A stretch of DNA of 64,000 bases, taken from IMG/VR virus record IMGVR_UViG_3300025789_000022, one strand, 5' to 3'. This document shows, one piece after another, positions 968 to 38,256 of the stretch; the stretch's first letter is position 1; the number at the start of each line of letters is the position of its first letter. This stretch comes from an uncultured virus (IMG/VR IMGVR_UViG_3300025789_000022). Lineage: Duplodnaviria > Heunggongvirae > Uroviricota > Caudoviricetes. A program made the translations under genes and the position numbers. The notes beneath the pieces were generated by a model. It ran no database searches. It saw only the letters and a list, made by a program, of their open reading frames with translations, and was not told where the DNA came from.

Positions 968-2131
968 ATGCCATCTGTAGCAGGCGTCGCAGGCAATGCA
1001 CTACCTTTTAGCGGTCCTCTTGATTTAGCATCTATAAATGCAGAGTGGGGGTTGGGTGCAGACCTCACGCAATATCACGGTGTTAAATGGTATTATGATG
1101 GAAATCTTACTTTTGGTTATTTCAGCAGCGGTGTAAACTCAATAAAAATAAGTGATTTTTATGGAAAACGTGCAACTGACCCTGCTAGCGGCGGCGCATA
1201 TTTTGCAAATGTCAGTGGTAGTTTTTCTGTTCCGCTATATCGCAATAGTATTACCATAGAGATATGGGGCGCAGGTGGCGGCGGTGGCAGTGGTAATGGC
1301 GGTGGTGGTGGCAAAGGTGGTGATAGCAGTGCATTGGGTGTCATTACTGGGGGTGGTGCTGGTGGTGGCTCTGGCTCTATTCCTGTTCCTCCTCCACCAT
1401 TAGATACAGCTACAAGTGGCAGCGGAGGACGAGAAACAGTAGAAAGTATCAGTTATGTAGGTGGTGCCTATGGCATTCAAGGACAGACTGTTACATCTGT
1501 AAACGGTGTTGTTACTGGAACGGTTAGTTGGGGTGGAGTTGGTACGGTATCAGTTCAAGTTGGTGATCCTGCACCAAGTTCAGAACCGTCTACTTGTTTT
1601 GTTGCTGGTACTCCTGTTATGATGTATGATAGAACTTATAAATCAATTGAACAAATAAAAGTTGGTGACAGGGTTATGGGTGCATTTGGTGAAATAAACA
1701 CTGTTTTGCTATTGCGTCATACATTTATTGGTAATAGATACATGTATATGGTAAATGATGAACATTTAACAACTGAAGACCATATGCATGTTTCTTCTGA
1801 TAAAAAGTTTTATAGTTTTAATCCTGAAAGACAGAAAAAATCTTGGAATAAATGGTTACCTGTTTTAGACCAAACAGGCAAAGAAATTGAATATTTTAAT
1901 TTAGGATTTGAGTTGGATAGACTTAATAAATTAGAATTAGGTATAGAATTACAAACAGTAAATGGTGGTAAAAGATTAGTCACTGCAGAAAAATTAACCT
2001 ATGCAAATGATACCCCTTTGTTTAATTTGATCGTTGACGGCAGTCATACATATACCGCTAATGGATATGCAGTGGTAGGCGGACCAAGAGAAGATGATTT
2101 TAATTATGATACTTGGATGATTAAGGATTAA
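968..2131 (+). CDS. Gly-rich gp38-like adhesin N-half fused to a C-terminal Hint domain
   Basis: N-terminal ~140 aa align by eye with 2486..3340; Hint motifs TCFVAGTPVMM, TEDH, FNLIVDGSHTYTANG. Confidence 0.8.
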   Translation: MPSVAGVAGNALPFSGPLDLASINAEWGLGADLTQYHGVKWYYDGNLTFGYFSSGVNSIKISDFYGKRATDPASGGAYFANVSGSFSVPLYRNSITIEIWGAGGGGGSGNGGGGGKGGDSSALGVITGGGAGGGSGSIPVPPPPLDTATSGSGGRETVESISYVGGAYGIQGQTVTSVNGVVTGTVSWGGVGTVSVQVGDPAPSSEPSTCFVAGTPVMMYDRTYKSIEQIKVGDRVMGAFGEINTVLLLRHTFIGNRYMYMVNDEHLTTEDHMHVSSDKKFYSFNPERQKKSWNKWLPVLDQTGKEIEYFNLGFELDRLNKLELGIELQTVNGGKRLVTAEKLTYANDTPLFNLIVDGSHTYTANGYAVVGGPREDDFNYDTWMIKD

Positions 2132-23158: not shown

Positions 23159-23245
23159 AGATTTTTTCCTACTTTTTAAATTTTTTTATAAATATCTTTA
23201 TAAAATTATTTATCTTAGAAAAAAATTAACTTAGGAAAAAAATTT

Positions 23246-26888: not shown

Positions 26889-27153
26889 AGATATTAACAT
26901 CTTCACTGCTACTAAAAAGCAGCGACCAATATGGATCGCCGCTGTTGAATCTAAAATTTAATGAATAATCGTTAGAGAAACATTCGTCACACCATTGCTT
27001 TAATGGTTGTTGTATTTTTTCTTTTAAAAAATCCGTGCTTAGTGGTGGATAAAATGCCATTCCAAAAACATCTGGATATATTTTAACTAGGTACTTGTCT
27101 GGTGCCAGAGATGTAAGAGTGCCTATTTCTATATTGTCTATCGTAGGGATCAT
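26857..27153 (-). CDS. Small protein of the FxLR(F/W)-terminal paralog family
   Basis: RFNSGDPYW...EDVNIFMLRFG. Confidence 0.65.
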   Translation of the reverse strand: MIPTIDNIEIGTLTSLAPDKYLVKIYPDVFGMAFYPPLSTDFLKEKIQQPLKQWCDECFSNDYSLNFRFNSGDPYWSLLFSSSEDVNIFMLRFGSNKH

Positions 27154-27308
27154 TTGGTTTGACTGCGTATCTCATTGATACGCTGTGTCATGTAATTAAT
27201 TATAATTTGTCTCATGTCTTCTGGCATATCATATGTTTTGGTGTTTAACTCATTTGTGATGATGTAAGTAAATGCAAACTCAATCATCTTTGCAATTGAA
27301 TAATTCAT
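27150..27308 (-). CDS. Small hypothetical protein (52 aa, MNYSIAKMIEFAF...; not in ORF track)
   Basis: TAAATA-N4-ATG start; TGA overlaps ATG of next ORF. Confidence 0.6.
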   Translation of the reverse strand: MNYSIAKMIEFAFTYIITNELNTKTYDMPEDMRQIIINYMTQRINEIRSQTK

Positions 27309-27344
27309 ATGATATTTATTACGATTTTATGACTGTAGAAAAAA

Positions 27345-27418
27345 TGGAGCGGAGTAGGAGAATCGAACTCCTCGCATCAGATTGGAAATCTGAGGTATTG
27401 CCACTATACGAACTCCGC
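27345..27418 (-). tRNA. tRNA-Gly(TCC)
   Basis: Cloverleaf, loop tttccaa, GTTCGA, CCA. Confidence 0.95.
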
Positions 27419-27561
27419 CCACTCATTTATTTAATTAAACTGTGGATATCAAAATCAGTTAAAAGCCATTTGACCAAGAGTATGAGCCAAAGGATTCTAA
27501 CAGATTCGTCTACAAACCGTCTATAAAACTTATACATCTTAGTCTACTTTCTTTTCTATGT

Positions 27562-27651
27562 TGGCGGAAGAGGTGAGATTCGAACTCACGGTAGGCTTTC
27601 ACCTACGCTAGTTTTCAAGACTAGAGCCATAAACCACTCGGCCACCCTTCC
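27562..27651 (-). tRNA. tRNA-Ser(TGA)
   Basis: Loop cttgaaa, long variable arm, G73, CCA. Confidence 0.95.
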
Positions 27652-27656
27652 AATAA

Positions 27657-27731
27657 TGGTGCTGTTAGAGAGAATCGAACTCCCGATCTATTGATTACTA
27701 ATCAATTGCCTTACCACTCGGCTATAACAGC
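27657..27731 (-). tRNA. tRNA-Thr(AGT)
   Basis: Stem attga/tcaat, loop ttagtaa, CCA. Confidence 0.92.
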
Positions 27732-27733
27732 AT

Positions 27734-27811
27734 TGGTGCCCCGCCCCCGATTCGAACGGGGAACCTCTTGATTCTAAGTCAAGCACCTCTAACCAGTTGG
27801 GCCAGCGGGGC
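27734..27811 (-). tRNA. tRNA-Leu(TAG), short variable loop
   Basis: Loop cttagaa, A73, CCA. Confidence 0.9.
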
Positions 27812-27947
27812 ATCATTTAATTATATTACAATAAATAGTTATGCATGTCAAGAGAAAAGTATATTAATTATCTTCTTTATTCATTTATTTTAGCCCATAC
27901 GTTCTTGGGATGCACAATCATAGCACAAACATTAGCAAAGTTTTAAC

Positions 27948-28571
27948 ATGGACCTGAAACAAATTCAAGGATTATTAGACATGGTTATGAAAGATAAGAA
28001 TGGTAAGGTATTAAGTCGTAGTGAAGGCGAAGCAGTTCTAAAAGGTCTTGCTTCTATTACAATCACAATCTTTGCTGCACTGTTAGCAATCACATCTTGG
28101 CTTGGTGGTCAAGTTAGTGGCAAGATCATGGCTGATAATATTGAACTTGGTGATACTTGGGGTTTTTATCAAGCCAAAAGCATCAAGCAAAACATGTATC
28201 AACTTAACCTTGATGATTTGAAAGTTCAAATTGCTGATCCAGCAACAGATAAAAGTTTAATACCAGCCTTAAAAGCACGTGCTGAAAATTATCAGAAATA
28301 TATTGATGCGCTAGAAAGTGATCCAAAGGGTGACGGTAAAAAAGAAATTATGGCAAAAGGTCGTGCGCTAGAAGCAGACCGTGATAATGCCAAGAAGTGT
28401 AGTCCATTCTTTGGTATGGCTGGTACAATCATTCAGATTGCTATTATCTTCTCAACCACTGCTATCCTTGCCGTCAGCATGGCTCTATGGTATAGCAGTA
28501 TTGCGGTTGGTATCATTGGCTTGATTGTGTTAGCAGATGGTATCTGGTATTTCTTTCCATTACCGTTCTAA
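27948..28571 (+). CDS. DUF4337-like membrane protein
   Basis: TM-WGFYQAKSIKQ-coiled coil-two TM pattern. Confidence 0.8.
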   Translation: MDLKQIQGLLDMVMKDKNGKVLSRSEGEAVLKGLASITITIFAALLAITSWLGGQVSGKIMADNIELGDTWGFYQAKSIKQNMYQLNLDDLKVQIADPATDKSLIPALKARAENYQKYIDALESDPKGDGKKEIMAKGRALEADRDNAKKCSPFFGMAGTIIQIAIIFSTTAILAVSMALWYSSIAVGIIGLIVLADGIWYFFPLPF

Positions 28572-29312
28572 TTGCTCTAATATCCATTCTGCAAGCCCTT
28601 GGTGAGCACGTCTGTCAGGATGTCCCCAATCAGGAAAATTAGTATGATGATAGCAGTATTGTATCCAATTTGTTGATGCTTCTGCTTCCACTATAAACCT
28701 ATCACGATTAAAATCTGCTTCATATTTTTCAGCAAATTCTGATACATGTGCTATAAGATGTGGATGTTTTATCGGTTCATCAAATATTAATTCATTTGCC
28801 CAATCATTCAGCACTATCTTTGCAAAGGCAAATTTCTGTATGATTGGATTAACCATTGCCATTCCGCCTATTACGATAAATGGAATGTTATATTGTTCAT
28901 ACAGTGTAGAAAATTTTAGATATGTTTCTTGCCATAAATCATTATGAATTGCATCATATCCATTATAATCTTGTAATTTTTTACTATCTATTGTTGCGTT
29001 GTTGTTAATAATATCTCTGACAGGTTCAGTTTGGAACCATATGATATAATCATAATCACGCTTTGTTTTTAAATGGTTGGCACATATAGTATATGCGTTG
29101 AGATTACTATCACCACCTACACATAAATTTGTAGAAGTATGCTCATTTAAATATACACCAACATGCGTATTGGGTATTGGCACTGTTTTACACCAATAAT
29201 TTGGTTTATCACCAAATACATGCCAATCATTATCTGGCGCAGCATCTGCATAAATGAAATCTTTTGACCATTCGCCGCAGCCCCAACTGTCGCCTATTAT
29301 AAGAAAATTCAT
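28560..29312 (-). CDS. SGNH-hydrolase-like protein
   Basis: IIGDSW at N-terminus, DWGHP near C-terminus. Confidence 0.65.
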   Translation of the reverse strand: MNFLIIGDSWGCGEWSKDFIYADAAPDNDWHVFGDKPNYWCKTVPIPNTHVGVYLNEHTSTNLCVGGDSNLNAYTICANHLKTKRDYDYIIWFQTEPVRDIINNNATIDSKKLQDYNGYDAIHNDLWQETYLKFSTLYEQYNIPFIVIGGMAMVNPIIQKFAFAKIVLNDWANELIFDEPIKHPHLIAHVSEFAEKYEADFNRDRFIVEAEASTNWIQYCYHHTNFPDWGHPDRRAHQGLAEWILEQLER

Positions 29313-29348
29313 GGGGTATTTATAGTGAAAAATGGCTGCGTTGGTGTA

Positions 29349-29411
29349 GGTATTATTGGTCTGCTAATCTTAGCAGATGGTATGTGGTATTTCTTTCCAC
29401 TACCGTTCTAA
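29349..29411 (+). repeat. Diverged duplicate of the 3' end of the DUF4337-like gene (28509-28571)
   Basis: Encodes GIIGLLILADGMWYFFPLPF* versus GIIGLIVLADGIWYFFPLPF*. Confidence 0.9.
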
Positions 29412-29909
29412 CATCTTTAACTTTTTTCTAATAGTAGTTTCAGTAACTCCATAATCCCTTGCCATAGCAGATTTATTACCATTATAGATTGTTGTTAACT
29501 TTTCAAAAACTTCTTGATTGGTTAAGAACATCTTTTGACGCCATACTTTATCTTTCTTAAATTTTTCTTTGCGTTCTTTTCTTTCAATTTTCCAACCATC
29601 AAATATTTCTTCATTGAATTGCACATAATTTTCTGGAATAGATATTAAACCATTATGAATTTCTTTATGGCAATTAGAACATAATAAAATACATTTTATT
29701 AATTCAACCTTAATTGCCTCTGCTGATTTTGGATTTGCTCTAATTGAAGAAAAACTTAATTCTTTTTTTGTTGGGTCTATGTGGTGTAATTCAAGTGCCG
29801 CATCGCATTTGAAGTATCCACAAATTTGGCAACACCCACCCATTGATTGAACAATTTTTTGTTTTGTTCTTTTACGCCAGTTAATTACATTTTCAGATTG
29901 CTTACTCAT
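29400..29909 (-). CDS. HNH homing endonuclease with C-terminal HTH
   Basis: CQICGY...ALELHHIDP...CILLCSNCHKEIH; NKSAMARDYGVTETTIRK. Confidence 0.88.
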   Translation of the reverse strand: MSKQSENVINWRKRTKQKIVQSMGGCCQICGYFKCDAALELHHIDPTKKELSFSSIRANPKSAEAIKVELIKCILLCSNCHKEIHNGLISIPENYVQFNEEIFDGWKIERKERKEKFKKDKVWRQKMFLTNQEVFEKLTTIYNGNKSAMARDYGVTETTIRKKLKMLER

Positions 29910-29960
29910 ATAGGTCTCCTTATTCGAACCTATATGTATTTATATAACATTGTATGTTAA

Positions 29961-30036
29961 TGGCTGCTTAGGTAGGATTCGAACCTACGACCCTCGGTTT
30001 AACAGACCGACGCAACTACCGCTGTGCTACTAAGCA
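29961..30036 (-). tRNA. tRNA-Asn(GTT)
   Basis: Loop ctgttaa, G73, CCA. Confidence 0.95.
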
Positions 30037-30090
30037 ATAACCTTATATTCTTAATATACTTATATTTGACAATCTTGTCAAGTATTATTT

Positions 30091-30167
30091 TGGAGCCTAC
30101 GGAGGGATTCGAACCCCCGACCCACGGTTTCGAAGACCGCTATTCTATTCCACTGAACTACGTAGGC
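30091..30167 (-). tRNA. tRNA-Arg(TCG)
   Basis: Loop cttcgaa, CCA. Confidence 0.93.
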
Positions 30168-30206
30168 ATTATTTCTATAGTTAATATTTGTACTTGTAAA
30201 TATAGG

Positions 30207-30851
30207 ATGGATGATTTACCAACCTTTCCTTTTATCTCAGAAGAAATACTTTTTGATGAAGGACCAGTACCAACACCAGAAAATATTATAATTCTTTATT
30301 ATCCTAATGCTAGTGGTAATTTTTTAGCACGAGTTTTAAGTTGTTCAAATAATCTTTATGGTGAAGATTATGCAGATTTTATAAAAAATAATTATAGTAC
30401 TTTGGAAAATAAAAATAAAATATGGGAAAAATCATATGAAGGATCATATCATCCTTTATTTTCAACAGTACATCCACGCTTCTATAACTTTGATGAATTT
30501 TTAAAATTTCCAAAAATAGTTCATATTAATTACACGCTATCTGATCAAGAAACTTCGTTAATTAAATTTCGTAGAAAATTTACTAAAACATCTGCTACAT
30601 GTCCATATCTTGCTGATTTACAGATACGTTATGAAATAGAATTAATGAAATTTTTTAAAAATATTAACAAAGAAATTTATAGTTTCCCGTTTAGTGCATT
30701 TTTAAATGCTAAAATTTTTGCACAGGAAGTTAATAAATTATTATTGCATCTTGATCTTGAAATTATAAAAGAAAACATTATTGTAGATTTGTATAATTTT
30801 TGGTGGAAACTCAATATTAGATTGTATAAGAATACCACGGTAAATTTGTAG
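30207..30851 (+). CDS. AT-rich hypothetical protein, sulfotransferase-like N-terminus
   Basis: YYPNASGNFLARVL; start reassigned to 30207 (TAAATA-N4-ATG) because the longer ORF overlaps tRNA-Arg. Confidence 0.6.
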   Translation: MDDLPTFPFISEEILFDEGPVPTPENIIILYYPNASGNFLARVLSCSNNLYGEDYADFIKNNYSTLENKNKIWEKSYEGSYHPLFSTVHPRFYNFDEFLKFPKIVHINYTLSDQETSLIKFRRKFTKTSATCPYLADLQIRYEIELMKFFKNINKEIYSFPFSAFLNAKIFAQEVNKLLLHLDLEIIKENIIVDLYNFWWKLNIRLYKNTTVNL

Positions 30852-30860
30852 GCATTATAT

Positions 30861-30936
30861 TGGTGAACGCTGTGGGGTTCGAACCCACGACAACAGGTTT
30901 AAAAGACCCGTACTCTACCAACTGAGTTAAGCGTTC
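30861..30936 (-). tRNA. tRNA-Lys(TTT)
   Basis: Loop cttttaa, CCA. Confidence 0.95.
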
Positions 30937-31036
30937 TAAATTTGTAAGTCAATGCGCAGCCCCCAACTATCGCCCACATTGTGACACATCCCATGGCCAT
31001 TGCCGATTGCTTACTGTGCCTTACCGTCTTTTATAT

Positions 31037-31113
<77 letters not shown>

Positions 31114-31123
31114 TTAAAATTTT

Positions 31124-31197
31124 GCCTGTCGTATGGGGGTCGAACCCATCTCTCAACCGACTCCGCAGTTGTATCCTATCCCATAGACGAACGACCA
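31124..31197 (-). ncRNA. tRNA-like / pseudo-tRNA with Glu-type body and aberrant anticodon loop
   Basis: TTCGTCTA..GG..AGGA D arm, atggg-TTCGACC-cccat T arm, no CCA. Confidence 0.6.
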
Positions 31198-31224
31198 ATA
31201 GGTTCATGACCCTACTGTTGGCAA

Positions 31225-31312
31225 ACTGTTGGCATTTGTTGCGTTAGATGATTGCTCATCTGCTCCCCTACCATCTCCGTAGGTGCTTCACAAGCAGTGC
31301 CATACTGCTACA
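31225..31312 (-). ncRNA. Putative multi-hairpin structured RNA
   Basis: tgct/agca, cctac/gtagg, agatga/tcatct hairpins closed by tggca/tgcca. Confidence 0.5.
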
Positions 31313-31316
31313 ATTT

Positions 31317-31393
31317 TGGTTGCGGTGGGGAAGATTTGAACTTCCGATCTCCAGTTTATGAGACTGGCGAGATGACCACTTCTCTACCCCGCA
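31317..31393 (-). tRNA. tRNA-Met(CAT), initiator-like body
   Basis: Loop ctcataa, TTCAAAT T loop, GCAACCA end; one bulged A in acceptor stem. Confidence 0.88.
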
Positions 31394-31401
31394 ATAAATT
31401 T

Positions 31402-31489
31402 TGGTGGGACGGGTAGGATTCGAACCTACTCCGTTTCTATGTAACGGGTTTACAGCCCGCCGCCCATCCGCCGTCTGAGCAGCCGTCCC
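31402..31489 (-). tRNA. tRNA-Tyr(GTA)
   Basis: Loop ctgtaaa, long variable region, CCA. Confidence 0.93.
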
Positions 31490-31535
31490 AATATCTTTAT
31501 AATAGCATATTATATTCTTTTGTCAAGCACTATTT

Positions 31536-31610
31536 TGGTACCGTCTACTGGTATCGATCCAGTTCTACGAGTGCCACAAACTCGTGTGCAACCTTTAACA
31601 CTTAGACGGC
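31536..31610 (-). tRNA. tRNA-His(GTG), no G-1, G1:U72, A73
   Basis: Stem cgagt/actcg, loop ttgtggc, CCA. Confidence 0.92.
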
Positions 31611-31657
31611 TCATATTATTAATATAACATGATTTTGCAGATTGTCAATGGAAAAAT

Positions 31658-31731
31658 TGGAGCGGCTAGCCAGAATCGAACTGGCGAATCTTCGTTGGCA
31701 ACGAAGCAGGTTACCTCTACATCATAGCCGC
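31658..31731 (-). tRNA. tRNA-Gly(GCC)
   Basis: Loop ttgccaa, U73, CCA. Confidence 0.95.
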
Positions 31732-31753
31732 ATCATTTGTATATATCATTTGT

Positions 31754-31828
31754 TGGCGCTCTCCCCAAGATTCGAACTTGGAACTAAAGTTTCGTAGACT
31801 TATGTGATATCCATTTCACCAAGAAAGC
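31754..31828 (-). tRNA. tRNA-Arg(ACG)
   Basis: Loop ctacgaa, CCA. Confidence 0.93.
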
Positions 31829-31835
31829 ATTATTT

Positions 31836-31913
31836 TGGTAGACCGTGTAGGATTTGAACCTACGTTGACGGAGATTAAGAGTCTCCCGCTAGAACCAACT
31901 CAGCTAACGGTCC
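31836..31913 (-). tRNA. tRNA-Lys(CTT)
   Basis: Loop ctcttaa, CCA. Confidence 0.93.
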
Positions 31914-31920
31914 ATATGAT

Positions 31921-31996
31921 TGGTACCCAAGGTTGGATTTGAACCAACGACCCACGCCTTATGAGAGCGTTGCCACTACCGCTGTGCTACTTGGGT
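31921..31996 (-). tRNA. tRNA-Met or Ile2 (CAT)
   Basis: Loop ctcataa, CCA; identity not resolvable by eye. Confidence 0.88.
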
Positions 31997-32004
31997 ATTA
32001 AAAT

Positions 32005-32160
32005 TGAGCAAGGCAAGGGGAGTCGAACCCTCTAGCACGTCTGATGTTACCAGCATCTTATCGCACCACTGCATAATTAACCTGTTTTAGGTTCAAATGC
32101 AGCCTACAGCCATATTTCTAATTAAATCTGGTAAATCTAATTATACTTTATCCTGTGCCA
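32005..32160 (-). ncRNA. ~155-nt RNA with tRNA-like T arm at 3' end
   Basis: aggg-TTCGACT-cccct T arm, internal stems tgcat/atgca, aacct/aggtt, gatg/catc. Confidence 0.5.
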
Positions 32161-32165
32161 AGTTT

Positions 32166-32241
32166 TGGTTGGCATCACTGGAATTGCACCAGTACTCTCT
32201 CGATTATCAGTCGAGTGCTTTACTAATTAAGCTAGACGCCA
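32166..32241 (-). tRNA. tRNA-Ile(GAT)
   Basis: Loop ctgataa, CCA; variant T loop TGCAATT. Confidence 0.9.
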
Positions 32242-32266
32242 GTGATTTAAAGAAGATTATTAGTTA

Positions 32267-32965
32267 TTAATTGGCAACGAATAAAACGTTGTTTTCCAAT
32301 GTCATTGCAATGTTATAACCAAATGATGTCATATAATTTTGAACATCATCGTTGCTAAATCCATATGCAGTGCAAACATCATTTATTTCCAACATAATTG
32401 CTGGTTTAAATTTGTTTATTAATTCGTTTGCACCTTGAAGGATAAACATTTCATAGCCTTCTGCATCTAACTGAATTAAATCACAGTGTTCCAAAGAAAG
32501 GTCATCCAAGCGCATTGCGGTTACTGTTTCTGCATTAACTTCATCATGATTTATATCATGAATGATTCTTTCTACAATCCAACTAGCGCCAAGATTTTCA
32601 GGATTATGTACGTTTATGCTAAGTGTTCCGCTGGTATCACTTAATGCTGCATGATATGCAGTAATATTAGTAACTGCATGCAACTCAATGTTTTTTGTTA
32701 AACATTCAAACATTGTTGCGCCTGGTTCAAATGTAATTACGTTATCAAAACTTTTTGCTAACTTTATTGGCCAGATGCCACCATTGCCACCTGCTTGTAT
32801 AGCAACTCGTTTATTAGGAATCAATGGTAAAATTTCATCAATTTGTGTTGATGAATCTGAACAAGATGACCATCCAATACTGTCATTTTCAGTCCACCAA
32901 AAATCTTGAATTTCCCAGAGTTGACTATCTTTGTTAAAAGTTTTTGATTCTCTAATTTCCATCAT
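32267..32965 (-). CDS. FkbM-family methyltransferase
   Basis: IQAGGNGG, FEP, LIQLDAEGYE, PAIMLE. Confidence 0.9.
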   Translation of the reverse strand: MMEIRESKTFNKDSQLWEIQDFWWTENDSIGWSSCSDSSTQIDEILPLIPNKRVAIQAGGNGGIWPIKLAKSFDNVITFEPGATMFECLTKNIELHAVTNITAYHAALSDTSGTLSINVHNPENLGASWIVERIIHDINHDEVNAETVTAMRLDDLSLEHCDLIQLDAEGYEMFILQGANELINKFKPAIMLEINDVCTAYGFSNDDVQNYMTSFGYNIAMTLENNVLFVAN

Positions 32966-32990
32966 ACTGTATTTAGCATGATATAAAAAT

Positions 32991-33067
32991 TGGTCCGCCC
33001 AGCGGGTGTCGATCCCGCTACTTCACCTTGAAAGGGTGGTGATATAGCCAGCGTTATCTATGGGCGG
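32991..33067 (-). tRNA. tRNA-Glu(TTC)
   Basis: Loop ctttcaa, CCA; T loop ATCGACA. Confidence 0.88.
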
Positions 33068-33080
33068 CGGATTGTAGTTT

Positions 33081-33142
33081 TGAGCGGCAGCGGGGAATCG
33101 AACCCCTTGGCTGTTAGTTAACGCAACCATGCAAACCACCGC
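33081..33142 (-). ncRNA. 62-nt D-armless tRNA-like RNA
   Basis: Acceptor gcggtgg/ctgccgc, T arm gggg-TTCGATT-cccc, central stem ggttg/cagcc. Confidence 0.6.
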
Positions 33143-33143
33143 A

Positions 33144-33773
33144 TTAAATTGTTGATAATTTTTTTAATTCTCTGGTTTTTGCCAGAGATTCTCTTATTTT
33201 TTGTTTAGTTTCTTCACTTCTTGGTTTACCAAATTGAGAATTTTTTTCACCTTTTTGGTGTTCTTTTTCTCGATATGTTTTAATGCGTTTTGCATTAGAT
33301 TCTGGTGAGTGTGTTTTTTCTAAAGCTAATTTGTCAATTTCCCCACGAGAACCAAAATATGTTTTTTTAAATAATCCATTTTCATGTCTTTCTTTAAGAA
33401 GAGAAGATACATGTGGTAATTGTCTGCCAGATAGAGACTTTGATACCTTTTCATATATTGCTTCTTTATCTTTGTGATTATTATTTAATCCTGTACGATT
33501 AATATATCCAAATCCACCTTTCCCGCCATCACAGAGATTATAACTCATTTCATCTAAAACAACGAGTTCTTTTTCTTTATTTTTCATATCTTTTTCGTTA
33601 TCGAATATATGTAATATTTCTTTTTTAAAATTTTCAATTCCATATTTTTGTATGGCTCTTTTAATAAGTTTACCAGAACCCATATAATTGTCATTTATAT
33701 TTTCAGTTTGATGCATACCAATATAATATTTGTTGTTTATGATATTAGTAATTTTATAAATCGTATAAAACAT
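33144..33773 (-). CDS. GIY-YIG (Seg-like) homing endonuclease with NUMOD3-like C-terminus
   Basis: IYKITN..NNKYYIG, YMGSG, YNLCDGGKGG, GEKNSQFGKPRSEETKQKIRES. Confidence 0.92.
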   Translation of the reverse strand: MFYTIYKITNIINNKYYIGMHQTENINDNYMGSGKLIKRAIQKYGIENFKKEILHIFDNEKDMKNKEKELVVLDEMSYNLCDGGKGGFGYINRTGLNNNHKDKEAIYEKVSKSLSGRQLPHVSSLLKERHENGLFKKTYFGSRGEIDKLALEKTHSPESNAKRIKTYREKEHQKGEKNSQFGKPRSEETKQKIRESLAKTRELKKLSTI

Positions 33774-33778
33774 GCTGC

Positions 33779-33827
33779 CCTCGAATGTATAATAGTTTTA
33801 TTGACATTACTATTTATACATTCGAGG
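33779..33827 (-). promoter_or_regulatory. Late promoter TATAAATA inside an RBS-sequestering hairpin
   Basis: cctcgaatgTATAAATAg...ctattatacattcGAGG, ATG follows. Confidence 0.8.
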
Positions 33828-33835
33828 CGCTTATG

Positions 33836-33907
33836 CGACTCCAAGGGAGATCGAACCCCTATCCCCTGATAGACAGTCAAGGATAATAGCCATTATAAGA
33901 TGGAGCC
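33836..33907 (-). tRNA. tRNA-Asp(GTC), CCA not encoded
   Basis: Loop ctgtcta, acceptor ggctcca/tggagtc, G73. Confidence 0.88.
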
Positions 33908-34157
33908 TTTTGTTTTTATTTCAATAAAGTGGTCTCGTTTATCATAGTATAGACCATCAGGTTCGTCTTTTACTTCTTTGAAGAACCACCAATTGTGTAA
34001 ATTAGGGAAACCGCCCCATTCCTCTTTTGAATATATGGTGTATGTCTTTGTTAAAGTATGCAGACCGCCCATTACATAAACTGTAATATTGACGATGCGT
34101 CCATCTGTTGTTTCTAAGTACAGTCCCGTTGCATCTTGGTTACTCCTATTATAAAAA

Positions 34158-34234
34158 TGGTGCCCAAAGTCAGATTTGAACTGACAACATTCCGATTTTG
34201 AGTCGGACGCCTCTACCAATTGGACTATTCGGGC
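34158..34234 (-). tRNA. tRNA-Leu(CAA), short variable loop
   Basis: Loop ctcaaaa, A73, CCA. Confidence 0.92.
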
Positions 34235-34239
34235 ATTAA

Positions 34240-34315
34240 TGGTGCAAGGTCTAAGGATCGAACTCAGTTCTTTGGTGCTTCAAACCAACGCAATTACCAA
34301 ACTTGCTCACCTTGC
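34240..34315 (-). tRNA. tRNA-Phe(GAA)
   Basis: Loop ttgaagc, CCA. Confidence 0.92.
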
Positions 34316-34323
34316 ATTTAAGT

Positions 34324-34401
34324 TGGAGGGGAAGGTGGGAATCGAACCCACATAATGCGGTTTTGCAGACCGTGACGTAACCTTTCCGTGCACACTTCCC
34401 C
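34324..34401 (-). tRNA. tRNA-Cys(GCA)
   Basis: Loop ctgcaaa, U73, CCA. Confidence 0.92.
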
Positions 34402-34403
34402 AA

Positions 34404-35036
34404 TTATAGTTTATCTACGAACTCACGTAGTAGAGCATGATGACGACCACCATGATAGAACTGTGGCATATACTGCCATGTATCATACCAGTAGGCTTGG
34501 CTCTCAGGATGACAGCCGATGATACCTACATTGCCTTGGCGAATAGCCATAGCATCGCCGTTAGCATAGGTAGCAACAGTCTCAAACTTACGCTTGTTGC
34601 CAACCAATGCACAGCCATCATAGAAATACATGGCTTCCTTATCACCGTTCCACTCTACTTCTACCACGGTGCCGTATGGACGAGCCGTGCAAGCCTGTGG
34701 GCGGCGAATATACTGAACAGCATCTACGCCATCAAGCAGATTGAAATAGTGGCTACCAGCCCAGTAAGCGCCCATGCAGATGCCAAGATACTTGCCACCA
34801 TGCGCTACGAAGTCTTGGATCATCTCTACCTTGTCACCAAGCAGATGATCAAATGACTGACTGTCACCGATACCACCAGGAAATGCTATGATGTCAGCAT
34901 CACCTAAGACAGCGCCAAAGTCATCATCTACCCGAAAGGTCTCAACATCATATGCACCACTTAGGGCGGCAATAATGCCGTTTGTGGAGTCACGGGAGCA
35001 TTGTGGGTGATGGGAAAATAAGGCTATCTTGCGCAT
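34404..35036 (-). CDS. Class I glutamine amidotransferase-like (BPL-N type) protein
   Basis: FPGG, YLGICMGAY, CHPE (Cys-His-Glu triad). Confidence 0.85.
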   Translation of the reverse strand: MRKIALFSHHPQCSRDSTNGIIAALSGAYDVETFRVDDDFGAVLGDADIIAFPGGIGDSQSFDHLLGDKVEMIQDFVAHGGKYLGICMGAYWAGSHYFNLLDGVDAVQYIRRPQACTARPYGTVVEVEWNGDKEAMYFYDGCALVGNKRKFETVATYANGDAMAIRQGNVGIIGCHPESQAYWYDTWQYMPQFYHGGRHHALLREFVDKL

Positions 35037-35137
35037 ATAATTCTCCTGAACTGCGGTATATTACTAATATACCATAGTTAAAATTGTTGTCAAGTGTTAT
35101 TTTTTTGACAGGTTTGCCAATATTTTGACAGGAAATC

Positions 35138-35374
35138 TTAATTTTTTGACACTTTTTGGTATTGTTCGTACCAGAATTTGGATGAAATTCGCAGTTTTTG
35201 GTTGCTTTCCCGCACATATTCTAGCAGTGCTTTGGCAAGTATTTGCTGTTCATTGCGCCAATCATAGTTAGGCTCACTTGCCATCTTTTCAGTAAGGTCA
35301 ATTACCATGTCGATATAAGGACAGGTATCACTTGGAATAACTGGTTTCACAAGGGGTTTTGATGCTCTAGCCAT
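35138..35374 (-). CDS. Hypothetical protein
   Basis: 78 aa ORF behind a TTGACA/TATATT promoter. Confidence 0.65.
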   Translation of the reverse strand: MARASKPLVKPVIPSDTCPYIDMVIDLTEKMASEPNYDWRNEQQILAKALLEYVRESNQKLRISSKFWYEQYQKVSKN

Positions 35375-35416
35375 ATTACTAATATATCATGTTTTTTAAG
35401 GTTGTCAAGAGAAAAA

Positions 35417-35491
35417 TGGCACGAGTGTTCAGATTCGAACTGAAAACAACGGTTTTGGAGACCGTGATGATAACCATTTCACCACACTCGC
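35417..35491 (-). tRNA. tRNA-Trp(CCA)
   Basis: Loop ctccaaa, G73, CCA. Confidence 0.93.
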
Positions 35492-35591
35492 ACATTAAAT
35501 TTTGCCTTGCTGAAACCACCTGCATCCATTTGGAGCCAGTACTAGTCAAGGGTTGCTCTTATGCGTGGGGAGCAACATCCCGAAAACTTGT

Positions 35592-35750
35592 TTAATCTTG
35601 AACAGTAACCTGAGTCACTGTGGTCTTTTTATCCTTTAAGTTAGCCTTAATATTCTTCTTCAAGGCTTTCTCAAATAATTCTTTTTCTTTTTTAGTATCA
35701 TGCGATAGAATTGCATCATACATCTTTCTTAACAACTTTGGCCATTTCAT
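35592..35750 (-). CDS. Small basic protein (52 aa, MKWPKLLRKMYDAIL...; not in ORF track)
   Basis: AAGGAG SD 8 nt before ATG; first ORF after the attenuator. Confidence 0.7.
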   Translation of the reverse strand: MKWPKLLRKMYDAILSHDTKKEKELFEKALKKNIKANLKDKKTTVTQVTVQD

Positions 35751-35770
35751 GTACCGTACTCCTTAATAAT

Positions 35771-35801
35771 AAAAAACCCCCGAAACTTTCGTTTCAGGGG
35801 C
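35771..35801 (-). terminator. Intrinsic terminator of putative attenuator
   Basis: cccctgaaac-GAAA-gtttcggggg followed by TTTTTT. Confidence 0.9.
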
Positions 35802-35829
35802 TAAGTGCATACTCTAATGTGCGTTCACA

Positions 35830-35910
35830 TTAGGCACACGCCCCCTCAGTCCAGAAACCTTCTGGCATGCGGCAAATGTTATAATCATTGTGTTTAGGCG
35901 TGTTAGTCAT
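35830..35910 (-). CDS. Putative leader peptide MTNTPKHNDYNICRMPEGFWTEGACA
   Basis: GAGAG SD, 26 codons; last codons overlap antiterminator strand. Confidence 0.75.
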   Translation of the reverse strand: MTNTPKHNDYNICRMPEGFWTEGACA

Positions 35911-35931
35911 GTTTGCTCTCAATTTGTATTC

Positions 35932-35962
35932 TATTTATATATCATAATAATATATTTGTCAA
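35932..35962 (-). promoter_or_regulatory. Composite promoter: TTGACA-N17-TATAAA overlapping late TATAAATA
   Basis: Minus strand cTTGACAaatatattattatgataTATAAATAg. Confidence 0.75.
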
Positions 35963-35971
35963 GAACTTTTT

Positions 35972-36190
35972 TTATGCAATATTTAGGGTAGTTTTAGCAG
36001 CACTAACTGCATCTGCAATGTTAGTTGCACTGCCATCTAAACTGTTAAGCAAATTGTTTAGAACCGTAATTTCAGCACTGATTGCTGCTAGTTCATTTTG
36101 CTTAACTGCAAGTTCTAAAGTGATAGCAGAAATAGATGCCTTTAGGCTATCACTAATAGTTTGAATGTTTGCAATTTCGTCAGTAGTCAT
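35972..36190 (-). CDS. Small coiled-coil protein
   Basis: TAAATA and AGGAG SD upstream; heptad pattern. Confidence 0.65.
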   Translation of the reverse strand: MTTDEIANIQTISDSLKASISAITLELAVKQNELAAISAEITVLNNLLNSLDGSATNIADAVSAAKTTLNIA

Positions 36191-36275
36191 TGGGGTAACT
36201 CCTAGTGTTTGATATTAAATCTATTTAGGAAAACTTAACTTTATACATGATTGTAATTATTGTCAATAGAAAAAA

Positions 36276-36905
36276 TTACAAGATTTTTATATTATTGTAA
36301 TTTTTTTCTAACCATTCATTATAAAATTCTTCTAGATGATCATCGCACTTTAATAAAAATTTTGTTTCTAAAATTTGTCTAAAACTATTATAGTTTAGTA
36401 AATCTTCAAATTTTATAGGTTCTATTTGATAAAAATTAAAAATTTTCTTCCAAGATTTAATAGTTGCAATTTTTATTTTTTTCTTTTCTTTATTTTCTTT
36501 AATAGTAAATTCTTTACCGTTTCTAAAAATTTTTAAAGGAGTTTCATTGGTATAAATGTTAAGTTTTTGTAATCGATCATATAAATTTTCTTCGTAATTT
36601 TCATTATTGATATAATAAAATTTACTATTTTTAAAAACATTATCTAATAACGGTGAATAATAATGTGATGCCATACAATGATACGTTGTAAATTTATCAT
36701 CACAACTTCCAGTAATTGTTAATTTTTCAGAATAATTTTTAAATGAATCATAATTATTGTCTGGTCCATTAAATTGTCCAGATTCAAAAATTTTCAATTG
36801 ATTATTGATCTTATCATGCAAATAATTTACAGCAGAACATAAAAAATCTCCACCTCCACCTCCGTGATGAAATACAATAAATTTATTTTTTTGGATATCA
36901 ATCAT
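36276..36905 (-). CDS. Very AT-rich hypothetical protein, sulfotransferase-like N-terminus
   Basis: FHHGGGGGDFLCS motif resembling that of 30207..30851. Confidence 0.55.
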   Translation of the reverse strand: MIDIQKNKFIVFHHGGGGGDFLCSAVNYLHDKINNQLKIFESGQFNGPDNNYDSFKNYSEKLTITGSCDDKFTTYHCMASHYYSPLLDNVFKNSKFYYINNENYEENLYDRLQKLNIYTNETPLKIFRNGKEFTIKENKEKKKIKIATIKSWKKIFNFYQIEPIKFEDLLNYNSFRQILETKFLLKCDDHLEEFYNEWLEKNYNNIKIL

Positions 36906-36911
36906 ATTATA

Positions 36912-37865
36912 TTATTGCCATTCAAATAAATTACTATCTAAACGTTGTTCTGGCGGATCAATACGGTTTTCAGCAATTTCAATATAAGATGGGTTAAGTT
37001 CAATCAGTGTGGCATTGCGTCCTAACTTATCACTAACATAGCCTGTTGTTCCACTGCCGCCAAAAGGATCAAGCACCATACCGTCACGTGGGCAACCTGC
37101 AATAATGGCTGGCTCAATCAATTCAGTAGGGAAGGTTGCAAAGTGTGCTTCTTTATATGGCTTGGTATTAACAGTCCATACACTGCGCTTCATGCGCTTG
37201 TTATCTTCGCCCCATACTCGTTCACCATCACTGAACCTATCACCGTTTGGATAATCTGCCTGATAACCCTCTGCTGCCTTATTACGAGCAACGGGAGCAG
37301 TGACAGCAGGTTCACGAATTGCCTCATAGTCAAAGTAATAGTTCTTGCTCTTGCTTAGAAGAAAGATATATTCATGTGCCTTTGTGCAACGATCCTTGAC
37401 AGACTCTGGCATAGGATTAGGCTTGTGCCATATGATATCCTGTCGCAAATACCATCCATCTGCACGAAGTGCAAATGCCAACATCCAAGGAATACCAATC
37501 AGGTCTTTACTCTTTAATCCTGCCAACTTGTTATTACGACTTGGTGAGAAACTTGGCAAATCTTGCTTAGTCTTAGCAACACTTTGCTTGACAAATGCTT
37601 CACCACTGCGATAGTTATAATATGAGTCACCGATGTTTACCCATAACGTTCCATCATCACGTAAAGTCCGACGAACTTCACGAAATACTTCTACTAATTG
37701 TGCTATATATTCTTCTGGTGACTGTTCTAAACCAATTTGTTTTTCCTGACCGCCATAATCACGCAACCCATAATATGGCGGTGAAGTTACACACATATTG
37801 ATACTGCCCTCTGGCAATGTCTGCAACACATCACGGCAATCGCCATTAAGAATTTGAACGGTCAT
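36912..37865 (-). CDS. DNA amino-methyltransferase (N4-C/N6-A, beta class)
   Basis: TSPPY, HFATFP, LDPFGGSGTT. Confidence 0.93.
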   Translation of the reverse strand: MTVQILNGDCRDVLQTLPEGSINMCVTSPPYYGLRDYGGQEKQIGLEQSPEEYIAQLVEVFREVRRTLRDDGTLWVNIGDSYYNYRSGEAFVKQSVAKTKQDLPSFSPSRNNKLAGLKSKDLIGIPWMLAFALRADGWYLRQDIIWHKPNPMPESVKDRCTKAHEYIFLLSKSKNYYFDYEAIREPAVTAPVARNKAAEGYQADYPNGDRFSDGERVWGEDNKRMKRSVWTVNTKPYKEAHFATFPTELIEPAIIAGCPRDGMVLDPFGGSGTTGYVSDKLGRNATLIELNPSYIEIAENRIDPPEQRLDSNLFEWQ

Positions 37866-37956
37866 GTTTTTTCCCTAAAATAATCAAGTTTAATTATAAC
37901 AATTGAGTAAGGATAAGTCAAGATAAATATTCTCATATAGATTCGGGGAATCATAA

Positions 37957-38256
37957 ATGTCAGTTCTTTTAAGAAAAGGTGCCTATGCAGTAGCAAATGC
38001 ACAAACCATCACCACAGGTAGTTCAAGTAATGCAACTGCTGCTTTCAGTAGTGTAGCAAGTATTCTGCGTGTTACTACTAATGCAGATACCTATATTGCT
38101 TGGGGTGCCAATCCTACTGCATATAACACTGGAAATTGCATGTTAATCGTGGGTGGTGGTGTAGAATTTATTGCTGTTAATGGCGGCGATAAGGTAGCAG
38201 CAATTCAAAGCACCACAAGCGGTCTTTGCAATGTTCTTGAATTAAAGAGCCAGTAA
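37957..38256 (+). CDS. Hypothetical (likely virion) protein
   Basis: TAAATA upstream; codon style of structural genes. Confidence 0.65.
   Translation: MSVLLRKGAYAVANAQTITTGSSSNATAAFSSVASILRVTTNADTYIAWGANPTAYNTGNCMLIVGGGVEFIAVNGGDKVAAIQSTTSGLCNVLELKSQ

Follow-up and report, generated by a model that had tools for sequence, protein, structure and literature searches.

A 26-codon mini-gene followed by an intrinsic terminator, found ahead of the transfer RNA (tRNA) genes in a 64,000-nucleotide (nt) stretch of the uncultured Caudoviricetes virus IMGVR_UViG_3300025789_000022 (this whole stretch is hereafter the window), may form a ribosome-dependent transcription attenuator of the leader-peptide type. 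As judged from sequence, the unit would report general translation and gate read-through into what lies directly behind it, namely a 52-codon open reading frame (ORF52), a structured RNA that we call X and tRNA-Trp; we rate this reading as neither probable nor improbable. It is based mainly on a layout that is conserved, a frame that is kept open while its sequence is unconstrained, overlapping helices that covary in relatives, and X being without a promoter. Conservation of the unit extends across uncultured T4-like phages from fresh water, represented in IMG/VR and in metagenome contigs. The initial annotation of the window had proposed a leader-peptide attenuator that samples nearly all amino acids served by the tRNA array; coupling of the open reading frame (ORF) to the terminator is supported by our analysis, whereas a pan-amino-acid sensor mirroring the array is not.

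All unit coordinates are on the minus strand of the window. Direct reading of that strand recovered every sequence feature that had been annotated, each in its place:

35932–35962, minus strand: sigma-70-type promoter, with TTGACA at 35962–35957, a 17-nt spacer and, as −10 element, the T4-late-type octamer TATAAATA at 35939–35932
35916–35920, minus strand: Shine–Dalgarno-like purine run, 5 nt ahead of the ATG, with 35808–35803 as a possible pairing partner in the consensus fold
35830–35910, minus strand: leader ORF (the mini-gene), 26 codons, with its ATG at 35910 and stop codon at 35832–35830
35896–35903, minus strand: candidate region 1, forming 8 pairs with 35844–35836 in the minimum-energy fold of the free transcript
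35851–35865, minus strand: hairpin of 6 base pairs (bp) within the ORF (codons 16–20), holding the invariant Trp codon at 35853–35851
35834–35845, minus strand: candidate region 2, the G-run and next bases (last base of codon 22 to codon 26), the predicted 5′ strand of an extended (antiterminator) hairpin
35814–35833, minus strand: hairpin H1, 8 bp with a 4-nt loop, the stop codon lying in its 5′ arm
35796–35808, minus strand: candidate region 3, partner of region 2, whose last 5–6 bases double as the base of the terminator stem
35771–35802, minus strand: intrinsic terminator, with a 10–12-bp stem at 35802–35777, a 4-nt loop and six T at 35776–35771

Two of the features by which leader attenuators are recognized are present, in that a short ORF with start signals lies near a promoter and an intrinsic terminator stands before promoterless genes. 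The G-run at 35845–35840 can pair with 35801–35796, the start of the terminator 5′ arm, and 35837–35834 can pair with 35808–35805. The whole unit folds far more stably than shuffled sequences (z = −5.6, with 0 of 200 shuffles as good), and a scan of 27000–38000 detected 35802–35771 as the sole strong minus-strand terminator.

In the mechanism that we propose, transcription would start from the combined early/late promoter, and the RNA would include a 26-codon ORF that is translated. The end of this ORF, from its last codons to the stop codon, would supply the 5′ strand of the extended hairpin, which consists of H1 and two outer helices. This hairpin would capture the first 5–6 bases of the terminator stem. 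A ribosome at the stop codon would unwind that strand, the full terminator would then form and transcription would end at 35771. Were ribosomes late, absent or stalled in the first ~18 codons, the extended hairpin would form first, and some polymerases would continue into ORF52, X and tRNA-Trp and then into the array, which would additionally be served by its own promoters. Such a switch would report general translation capacity and not the supply of particular tRNAs. We infer both the direction of the switch and that there is any regulation at all.

Two observations concern the promoter. The T4-late-type octamer occurs in the window at 23187, 29317, 29937, 33811, 35932 and 59966, all six copies lying within ~60 nt upstream of a same-strand ORF, with no overall enrichment in the window (6 sites against 8.45 expected). 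No RNA run was found to include the region; two 151-nt pieces, at depth 2, came from sequencing run X20, which is labelled metatranscriptomic and marked as probably DNA, and they are uninformative on transcript ends or levels. One of them (35865–36014) reaches from the end of a 72-codon ORF upstream across the promoter into the first part of the mini-gene.

Conservation of the mini-gene unit

The window's own family comprised 11 distinct variants from viral contigs and a few more from metagenomes (14 loci). Across the 11 variants the promoter hexamers, the purine run and the ATG were invariant; the promoter spacer, the 5-nt spacer between purine run and ATG (four different forms) and codon 2 were variable. 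The reading frame was maintained in all 11, and one metagenomic variant had an in-frame 3-nt insertion in the leader ORF. Because the Shine–Dalgarno-like run and the ATG are held constant amid variable neighbours, and because the insertion preserves the frame, we infer that the leader ORF is translated, as its sequence would have it.

Codons 2, 8, 11, 21 and 22 varied freely, with radical replacements that included Val at codons 21–22. Zero synonymous changes were seen among the 11 variants at codons 3–6, 12–20 and 23–26, that is, in 17 of the 26 codons, and a degenerate search back-translated from nine core codons recovered two new loci (L122 and L125) that were nucleotide-identical there, with no synonymous variant. 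Identity of the unit to relatives of the G002 type was 85–86%, compared with 65–82% for the flanking genes, and its invariance at the nucleotide level was comparable to that of tRNA genes. The want of synonymous change, the higher identity than the flanks and the retained ATG together argue for a constraint on the RNA with the frame kept open.

The consensus fold of these variants has five helices, formed by the ribosome-binding site with 35808–35803, by 35903–35896 with 35844–35836, by the hairpin at 35865–35851, by H1 and by the terminator, and it leaves the ATG unpaired. H1 showed one compensatory change from A-U to G-C (in 4 of the 11 variants), and the terminator two changes from wobble to Watson–Crick pairs in relatives. 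Both strands of the candidate region 1 helix are invariant, and it is hence without covariation evidence. The first pair of region 2 is G-U, A-U or G-C depending on the variant and is never a mismatch. Substitutions in relatives fell in the predicted loop and bulge (35813–35809) and not in the paired bases of the extended hairpin, which favours the pairing register of the initial annotation; the metagenome variants added the insertion and loop changes, leaving the G-run/C-run helix unchanged.

More diverged units were found in L153, in L148 and L163, and in a group that we call family 2 (13 loci, 12 distinct sequences). In L153 the first half of the mini-gene differs, with the stem of the 35851–35865 hairpin retained and its loop altered, and the second half is as in the window. 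The ORF has 24 codons in L148 and L163 and 32–35 codons in family 2. The diverged units share a common layout, consisting of a late-type promoter, an ORF of 24–35 codons, a stop codon within a hairpin and a terminator. The distance from the stop codon to the T-tract was 49–55 nt in all 21 units compared, and the stop codon was paired to downstream RNA in 21 of 21, compared with 21 of 53 other genes of the window; at least 12 bases of the ORF end were paired in 10 of the 21 units and in 3 of the 53 control genes.

Among 19 aligned peptides, only Met1 and one Trp, located 6–9 residues from the stop codon, were invariant; Pro and Gly stood shortly before this Trp in most, and positions with Pro, Gly, Cys and Arg recurred across the set. 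Family-2 peptides had a ratio of non-synonymous to synonymous divergence (pN/pS) of ~0.83 at a pS of 0.43; frame and length thus persist, though the sequence scarcely does. In contrast to the one-sided changes of the window family's antiterminator helix (below), the family-2 RNA structures covary on both strands: 7 of 16 pairs of the hairpin and 4 of 8 pairs of the terminator had compensatory changes, with 72.9% and 89.4% of alignment cells paired, compared with 22–39% and 23–57%, respectively, when the strands were slid against each other. Hairpin and terminator share alignment columns 64–66 in 11–12 of the 12 sequences, and columns 64–69 in 5 of the 12. Both, then, are under selection, and as they share columns they cannot both be complete.

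Folding of the leader RNA and comparison with known attenuators

We folded the unit as free RNA and with ribosomes placed on the leader, running the E. coli trp leader through the same scripts as a positive control. In window RNA lacking the 3′ arm of the terminator, as in a nascent transcript, the extended hairpin was the minimum-energy fold at −25 kcal/mol, holding 35801–35796. In each of the 7 lineages tested, no more than 0.3% of natural flanks interacted with the downstream RNA as strongly as the ORF end does. For three family-2 loci the modelled probability of the terminator, given here for free RNA, a ribosome at the stop codon and a ribosome at codon 10, changed with ribosome position:

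L147: 0.91, 0.99 and 0.22
L155: 0.86, 0.98 and 0.16
L165: 0.11, 0.90 and 0.03

In these models the direction expected of an attenuator is visible at equilibrium for L147, L155 and L165. In family-2 members of the L134 type the terminator probability barely shifts (0.73–1.00).

A number of results weigh against a working switch. In the window family the exclusive antiterminator helix (35845–35840 with 35801–35796) is nearly invariant, with one-sided changes only and no compensatory covariation. The 6 of 10 terminator-arm bases that are sequestered in nascent RNA were matched by 49% of sequences in which the last eight codons had been shuffled and by 14% of natural coding flanks, our second comparison, and the shuffle fraction ranged from 0.13 to 0.78 across 18 units. 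For the window family, the annotated claim of mutually exclusive folds holds as far as the pairing exists and is the minimum-energy fold of nascent RNA, but two-sided covariation is lacking and the pairing is no better than in shuffles (0.49). In equilibrium folding the full RNA favours the terminator by 7 kcal/mol. The estimated refolding barrier was 2.2 kcal/mol, compared with 5.8 kcal/mol for the trp control, which in this differs from the unit, and 1.7–7.3 kcal/mol in other lineages; the upper half of the terminator stays free to nucleate. The reach of the switch would also be limited, with strong promoters from 35408 on and, in the relative G002, a promoter, a gene and two terminators intervening. 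Finally, the invariant Trp and the Pro and Gly before it hint at a possible sequence-specific role of the peptide.

Folding with the ORF end blocked by a ribosome, which the initial annotation had proposed as a check, left the window terminator at a probability of 1.00 in every state (free RNA, ribosome at the stop codon, ribosome at codon 10, and 5′ half masked), yet the trp control was equally unmoved: its terminator stood at 0.97 in all four states, and its antiterminator appeared in nascent RNA only. On the annotation's own point that the antiterminator should compete in folding, the equilibrium test goes against the unit, but as it goes against trp just as much, it has no power to rule out a real attenuator.

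With the leader attenuators of the trp, his, thr and ilv operons, the unit has in common a promoter-proximal short ORF and an intrinsic terminator before the genes that would be controlled. A four-region layout (1:2, 2:3 and 3:4) is possible, and antiterminator and terminator overlap in part, approximately as in trp. Unlike trp-type attenuators, the unit has no run of codons for a single amino acid and precedes phage RNA genes and a small ORF, not biosynthetic enzymes; no residue occurs in the leader more than three times, and no amino acid's codons are in excess. The Rfam His_leader model scored 17.1 bits on the unit against a cut-off of 49.

Leaders of the erm and ABC-F types respond to drug-bound ribosomes and control protein genes. 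They resemble the unit in having a short leader ORF of mixed composition, and differ from it in that response and in the type of gene controlled; we identified no conserved drug-dependent arrest motif in the mini-genes. As any slowing of ribosomes on the leader would favour the antiterminator, the signal would be translation capacity and not one amino acid.

The arrest leaders TnaC and SecM work through translation or Rho-dependent termination; an intrinsic terminator is not their target. By layout they are similar, with a short ORF and a single invariant Trp mostly preceded by Pro and Gly, but in the geometry of the window a stall at the Trp codon or the stop codon would cover region 2 and favour termination. 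In four lineages the tRNA nearest behind the unit is tRNA-Trp; on the unlikely reading that the unit gauges decoding speed, this and the invariant Trp codon could point to a more specific sensor of Trp decoding.

Alternative functions of the unit and the match to the tRNA array

Among the alternatives to a ribosome-dependent attenuator, an ordinary small-gene cassette is, in our estimate, rather unlikely. Here a functional 26-residue micro-protein would be made from its own promoter, the hairpin and terminator would end and stabilize its messenger RNA, and constitutive leakage through the terminator would feed the downstream genes. In keeping with an autonomous cassette, the unit of G002 is flanked by an upstream terminator and its own downstream terminator; there is one copy per genome, the terminator always forms at equilibrium, and the 19 peptides share one Trp and recurring Pro, Gly, Cys and Arg positions. 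Yet the pN/pS of ~0.8 in family 2 and the free, radical replacements at codons 2, 8, 11, 21 and 22 sit poorly with selection on a protein, the 17 codons devoid of synonymous change indicate constraint on the RNA rather than on the protein, and the covarying columns shared by hairpin and terminator in relatives are left unexplained. Comparisons with Pfam and PHROG gave nothing for the neighbouring genes, the peptide itself not having been searched there.

A second alternative, which we regard as quite improbable, is that the product is a structured small RNA of ~160 nt running from promoter to terminator, with the frame incidental or the function dual. Nucleotide invariance on a par with tRNA genes, the compact five-helix fold with its z of −5.6, a ribosome-binding site that can pair with 35808–35803, and a setting rich in RNA genes and adjoining the unclassified RNA X would all suit such a molecule. 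Such a molecule does not readily accommodate an ATG that stays constant where its neighbours change and that the consensus fold leaves unpaired, an in-frame insertion of 3 nt, or the retention of a frame of 24–35 codons in distant lineages with little nucleotide similarity. No Rfam family matched the unit, the best being anti-hemB at 19.3 bits against a cut-off of 49.5.

The third alternative is the matched sensor of the initial annotation, in which the leader codons would be selected to sample exactly the tRNAs of the array and the lack of any one of these would open it. ARAGORN found 22 tRNAs for 17 amino acids in the window array, with none for Ala, Val or Gln. Leader codons 1–21 specify 15 different residues, all with a tRNA in this array, and lack Ala, Val and Gln; this combination occurred in 2 of 16,275 natural windows. 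The components are less rare, with 15 or more residue types found in 5–6% of natural or random 21-residue windows and all three of Ala, Val and Gln absent from 1.5–2% of them. Moreover, the cut at codon 21 was chosen post hoc, as Ala occurs twice in the leader ORF past it, and when all 25 codons are taken, 15% of windows hold no more than two of these residues.

The relatives check that had been suggested separated the parts of this proposal: the short upstream ORF and terminator are conserved, and the stems covary in family 2, but leader composition does not track tRNA content. The match of leader and array holds in the window and fails in G002, G003 and G004 behind a near-identical leader, and Gly is uncovered behind the L163-type leader of G005:

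G002: tRNAs for Pro, His, Tyr and Phe missing behind the leader; 4 of the 15 residue types of the first 21 codons uncovered
G003: tRNAs for Pro and Val missing; 2 uncovered (Pro, and Val at codon 22)
G004: tRNA for Phe missing; 1 of the 15 residue types of the first 21 codons uncovered
G005 (in the stretch examined): tRNA for Gly missing; 1 uncovered (Gly)

In G003, tRNAs for Thr and Trp were also absent from the ARAGORN list, although the Rfam tRNA model does hit the sites expected for both, at 25 bits for Thr, which is under its cut-off, and at 35 bits for Trp. In other lineages the related leaders make free use of Ala, Val, Gln, Ser and Leu, most of the array is under its own promoters, and in known attenuators a single codon per amino acid gives weak sensitivity. 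With arrays in relatives that lack leader residues, Val at codons 21–22, and statistics in the window that are modest and partly post hoc, we therefore reject the matched pan-amino-acid version, which is very improbable.

Codons 7–11 (35878–35892, minus strand) are five successive His, Asn, Asp or Tyr codons, the set read by queuosine-type tRNAs, and 0.4% of windows contain a five-codon run of this kind. Where codon 8 has changed from Asn to Tyr, it remains inside the set. We rejected this run as a candidate signal, as some relatives interrupt it at codon 11 and the leaders of L153, L148 and family 2 lack it.

RNA X, the genes behind the terminator and their setting

The genes behind the terminator in the window are as follows, together with the promoter that bounds what the terminator alone could gate:

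35592–35764, minus strand: ORF52, 52 codons long and headed by a strong ribosome-binding site, immediately past the terminator and without its own promoter
35505–35582, minus strand: structured RNA X, between ORF52 and tRNA-Trp, always found behind a mini-gene unit
35417–35491, minus strand: tRNA-Trp, the last gene ahead of the next promoter
35381–35408, minus strand: next consensus promoter, with 11/12 matches

From the terminator to 35408 we found no promoter-like site save a 9/12 match within ORF52, and the promoterless set thus consists of ORF52, X and tRNA-Trp only, the rest of the array having promoters of its own. Five further array promoters lie at 35093, 31648, 31526 and 30081 (11/12 matches) and at 27851 (10/12); the initial caveat about promoters inside the array was well placed, consensus promoters being located from 35408 onward. 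ORF52 is a 188-nt presence/absence polymorphism (an insertion or deletion) among close relatives, and the distant L163 lineage has a homologue in this place. Comparisons with Pfam and PHROG assigned it to no family.

A search with the core of X returned 49 loci (L127–L175), 10 of which we judged by eye to be chance matches in coding DNA; the other 39 represent 26 distinct sequences, of which 25 were aligned and L152 was omitted. X folds into a 7-bp hairpin with an 11-nt loop and a second domain, and 7 of the 18 predicted pairs had compensatory changes among the 25 sequences. By this covariation X is a real and new structured RNA, and one that should therefore be expressed as RNA. It matched no Rfam family, and X with its promoter from L150 found nothing similar among 50,697 phage records.

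X was preceded by a mini-gene unit in every case, though the mini-genes differ. In family-2 phages a sigma-70-type promoter lies between the terminator and X, and X there heads the RNA-gene array. The window family has no promoter in that interval, and X must therefore arise by read-through. Past X the relatives diverge: some have tRNA-Trp, some a GIY-YIG endonuclease gene or other RNAs, and in G002 a promoter comes next, followed by a 93-codon gene and a terminator. With such variable neighbours past X, the conserved partnership is that of the mini-gene unit with X, and not with tRNAs.

Past X, a number of loci (L132, L134, L138, L144, L147, L150, L151, L154, L156, L159 and L165, and L107/L116) carry serial units in which a variable RNA of 60–150 nt lies between conserved inverted repeats of ~16–20 bp. 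Some of these RNAs bear a tRNA-like T-arm and were called by neither ARAGORN nor Rfam. The long inverted repeats could serve as processing stems that flank tRNA-like RNAs of a non-canonical kind.

The T4 tRNA gene cluster encodes small stable RNAs known as species 1 and 2. X is likened to these by description, as an unclassified structured RNA among the tRNA genes of a T4-like phage.

Elsewhere in the window, neighbouring genes encode a T4 gp15-like tail-sheath stabilizer, a tail sheath protein, a deoxynucleoside monophosphate kinase, DNA methylases and homing endonucleases. Genes of mobile elements lie in or near the array at 33144–33773 (minus strand), 29403–29909 (minus strand) and 968–2128 (plus strand); their products are a homing endonuclease of the GIY-YIG/NUMOD3 type, an HNH endonuclease and a protein that carries an intein-type (Hint) domain.

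The relative G002 is 338,435 bp long with terminal repeats, is rated 100% complete and has a single copy of the mini-gene. Between its unit and tRNA-Trp lie a promoter, the 93-codon gene and two further terminators; the description of the unit as the head of a tRNA array consequently suits the window, where it precedes the array, but not G002. The gene upstream of the unit in G002 has its own terminator just ahead of the unit promoter. In this complete 338-kb relative the upstream gene (L099 1962–2885, plus strand, followed by an entry at L099 2900–2945) encodes 307 residues, and its product may be a periplasmic phosphate-binding protein.

Public phage records contained no close match to the window region, and a distant search matched a single stretch of 60 nt within the tRNA region. 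The nearest record is G001, a fragment of 34 kb in which the unit region is missing. Another 66 more distant loci, selected by an amidotransferase-like gene (53–59% identity), had no peptide or DNA homologue of the unit, and the 13 of these that we inspected had at most one tRNA each.

Phage tRNA genes have come to be discussed as counter-measures to host tRNA-cutting nucleases (PMC10264068 and PMC11555353), and the words promoter, terminator and leader do not occur in PMC10264068. How phages control their tRNA genes is largely undescribed, and the literature that we searched, with limited library coverage, yielded no attenuator before phage tRNA genes.

The comparison yields a covariation-supported new RNA, X, heading these arrays, and a family of mini-genes in which the frame is conserved and the sequence is not. 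We consider it unlikely, though worth stating, that the unit is a translation-capacity sensor of a giant phage, in which host defences or starvation would slow ribosomes on the mini-gene, increase read-through and so supply more X and tRNAs; if so, a phage would gate its RNA-gene array by gauging the speed of decoding. Should the unit prove to be a working attenuator, it would extend leader-peptide control from amino-acid operons to viral RNA genes, and it would offer a simple, testable reporter of translation stress during infection.

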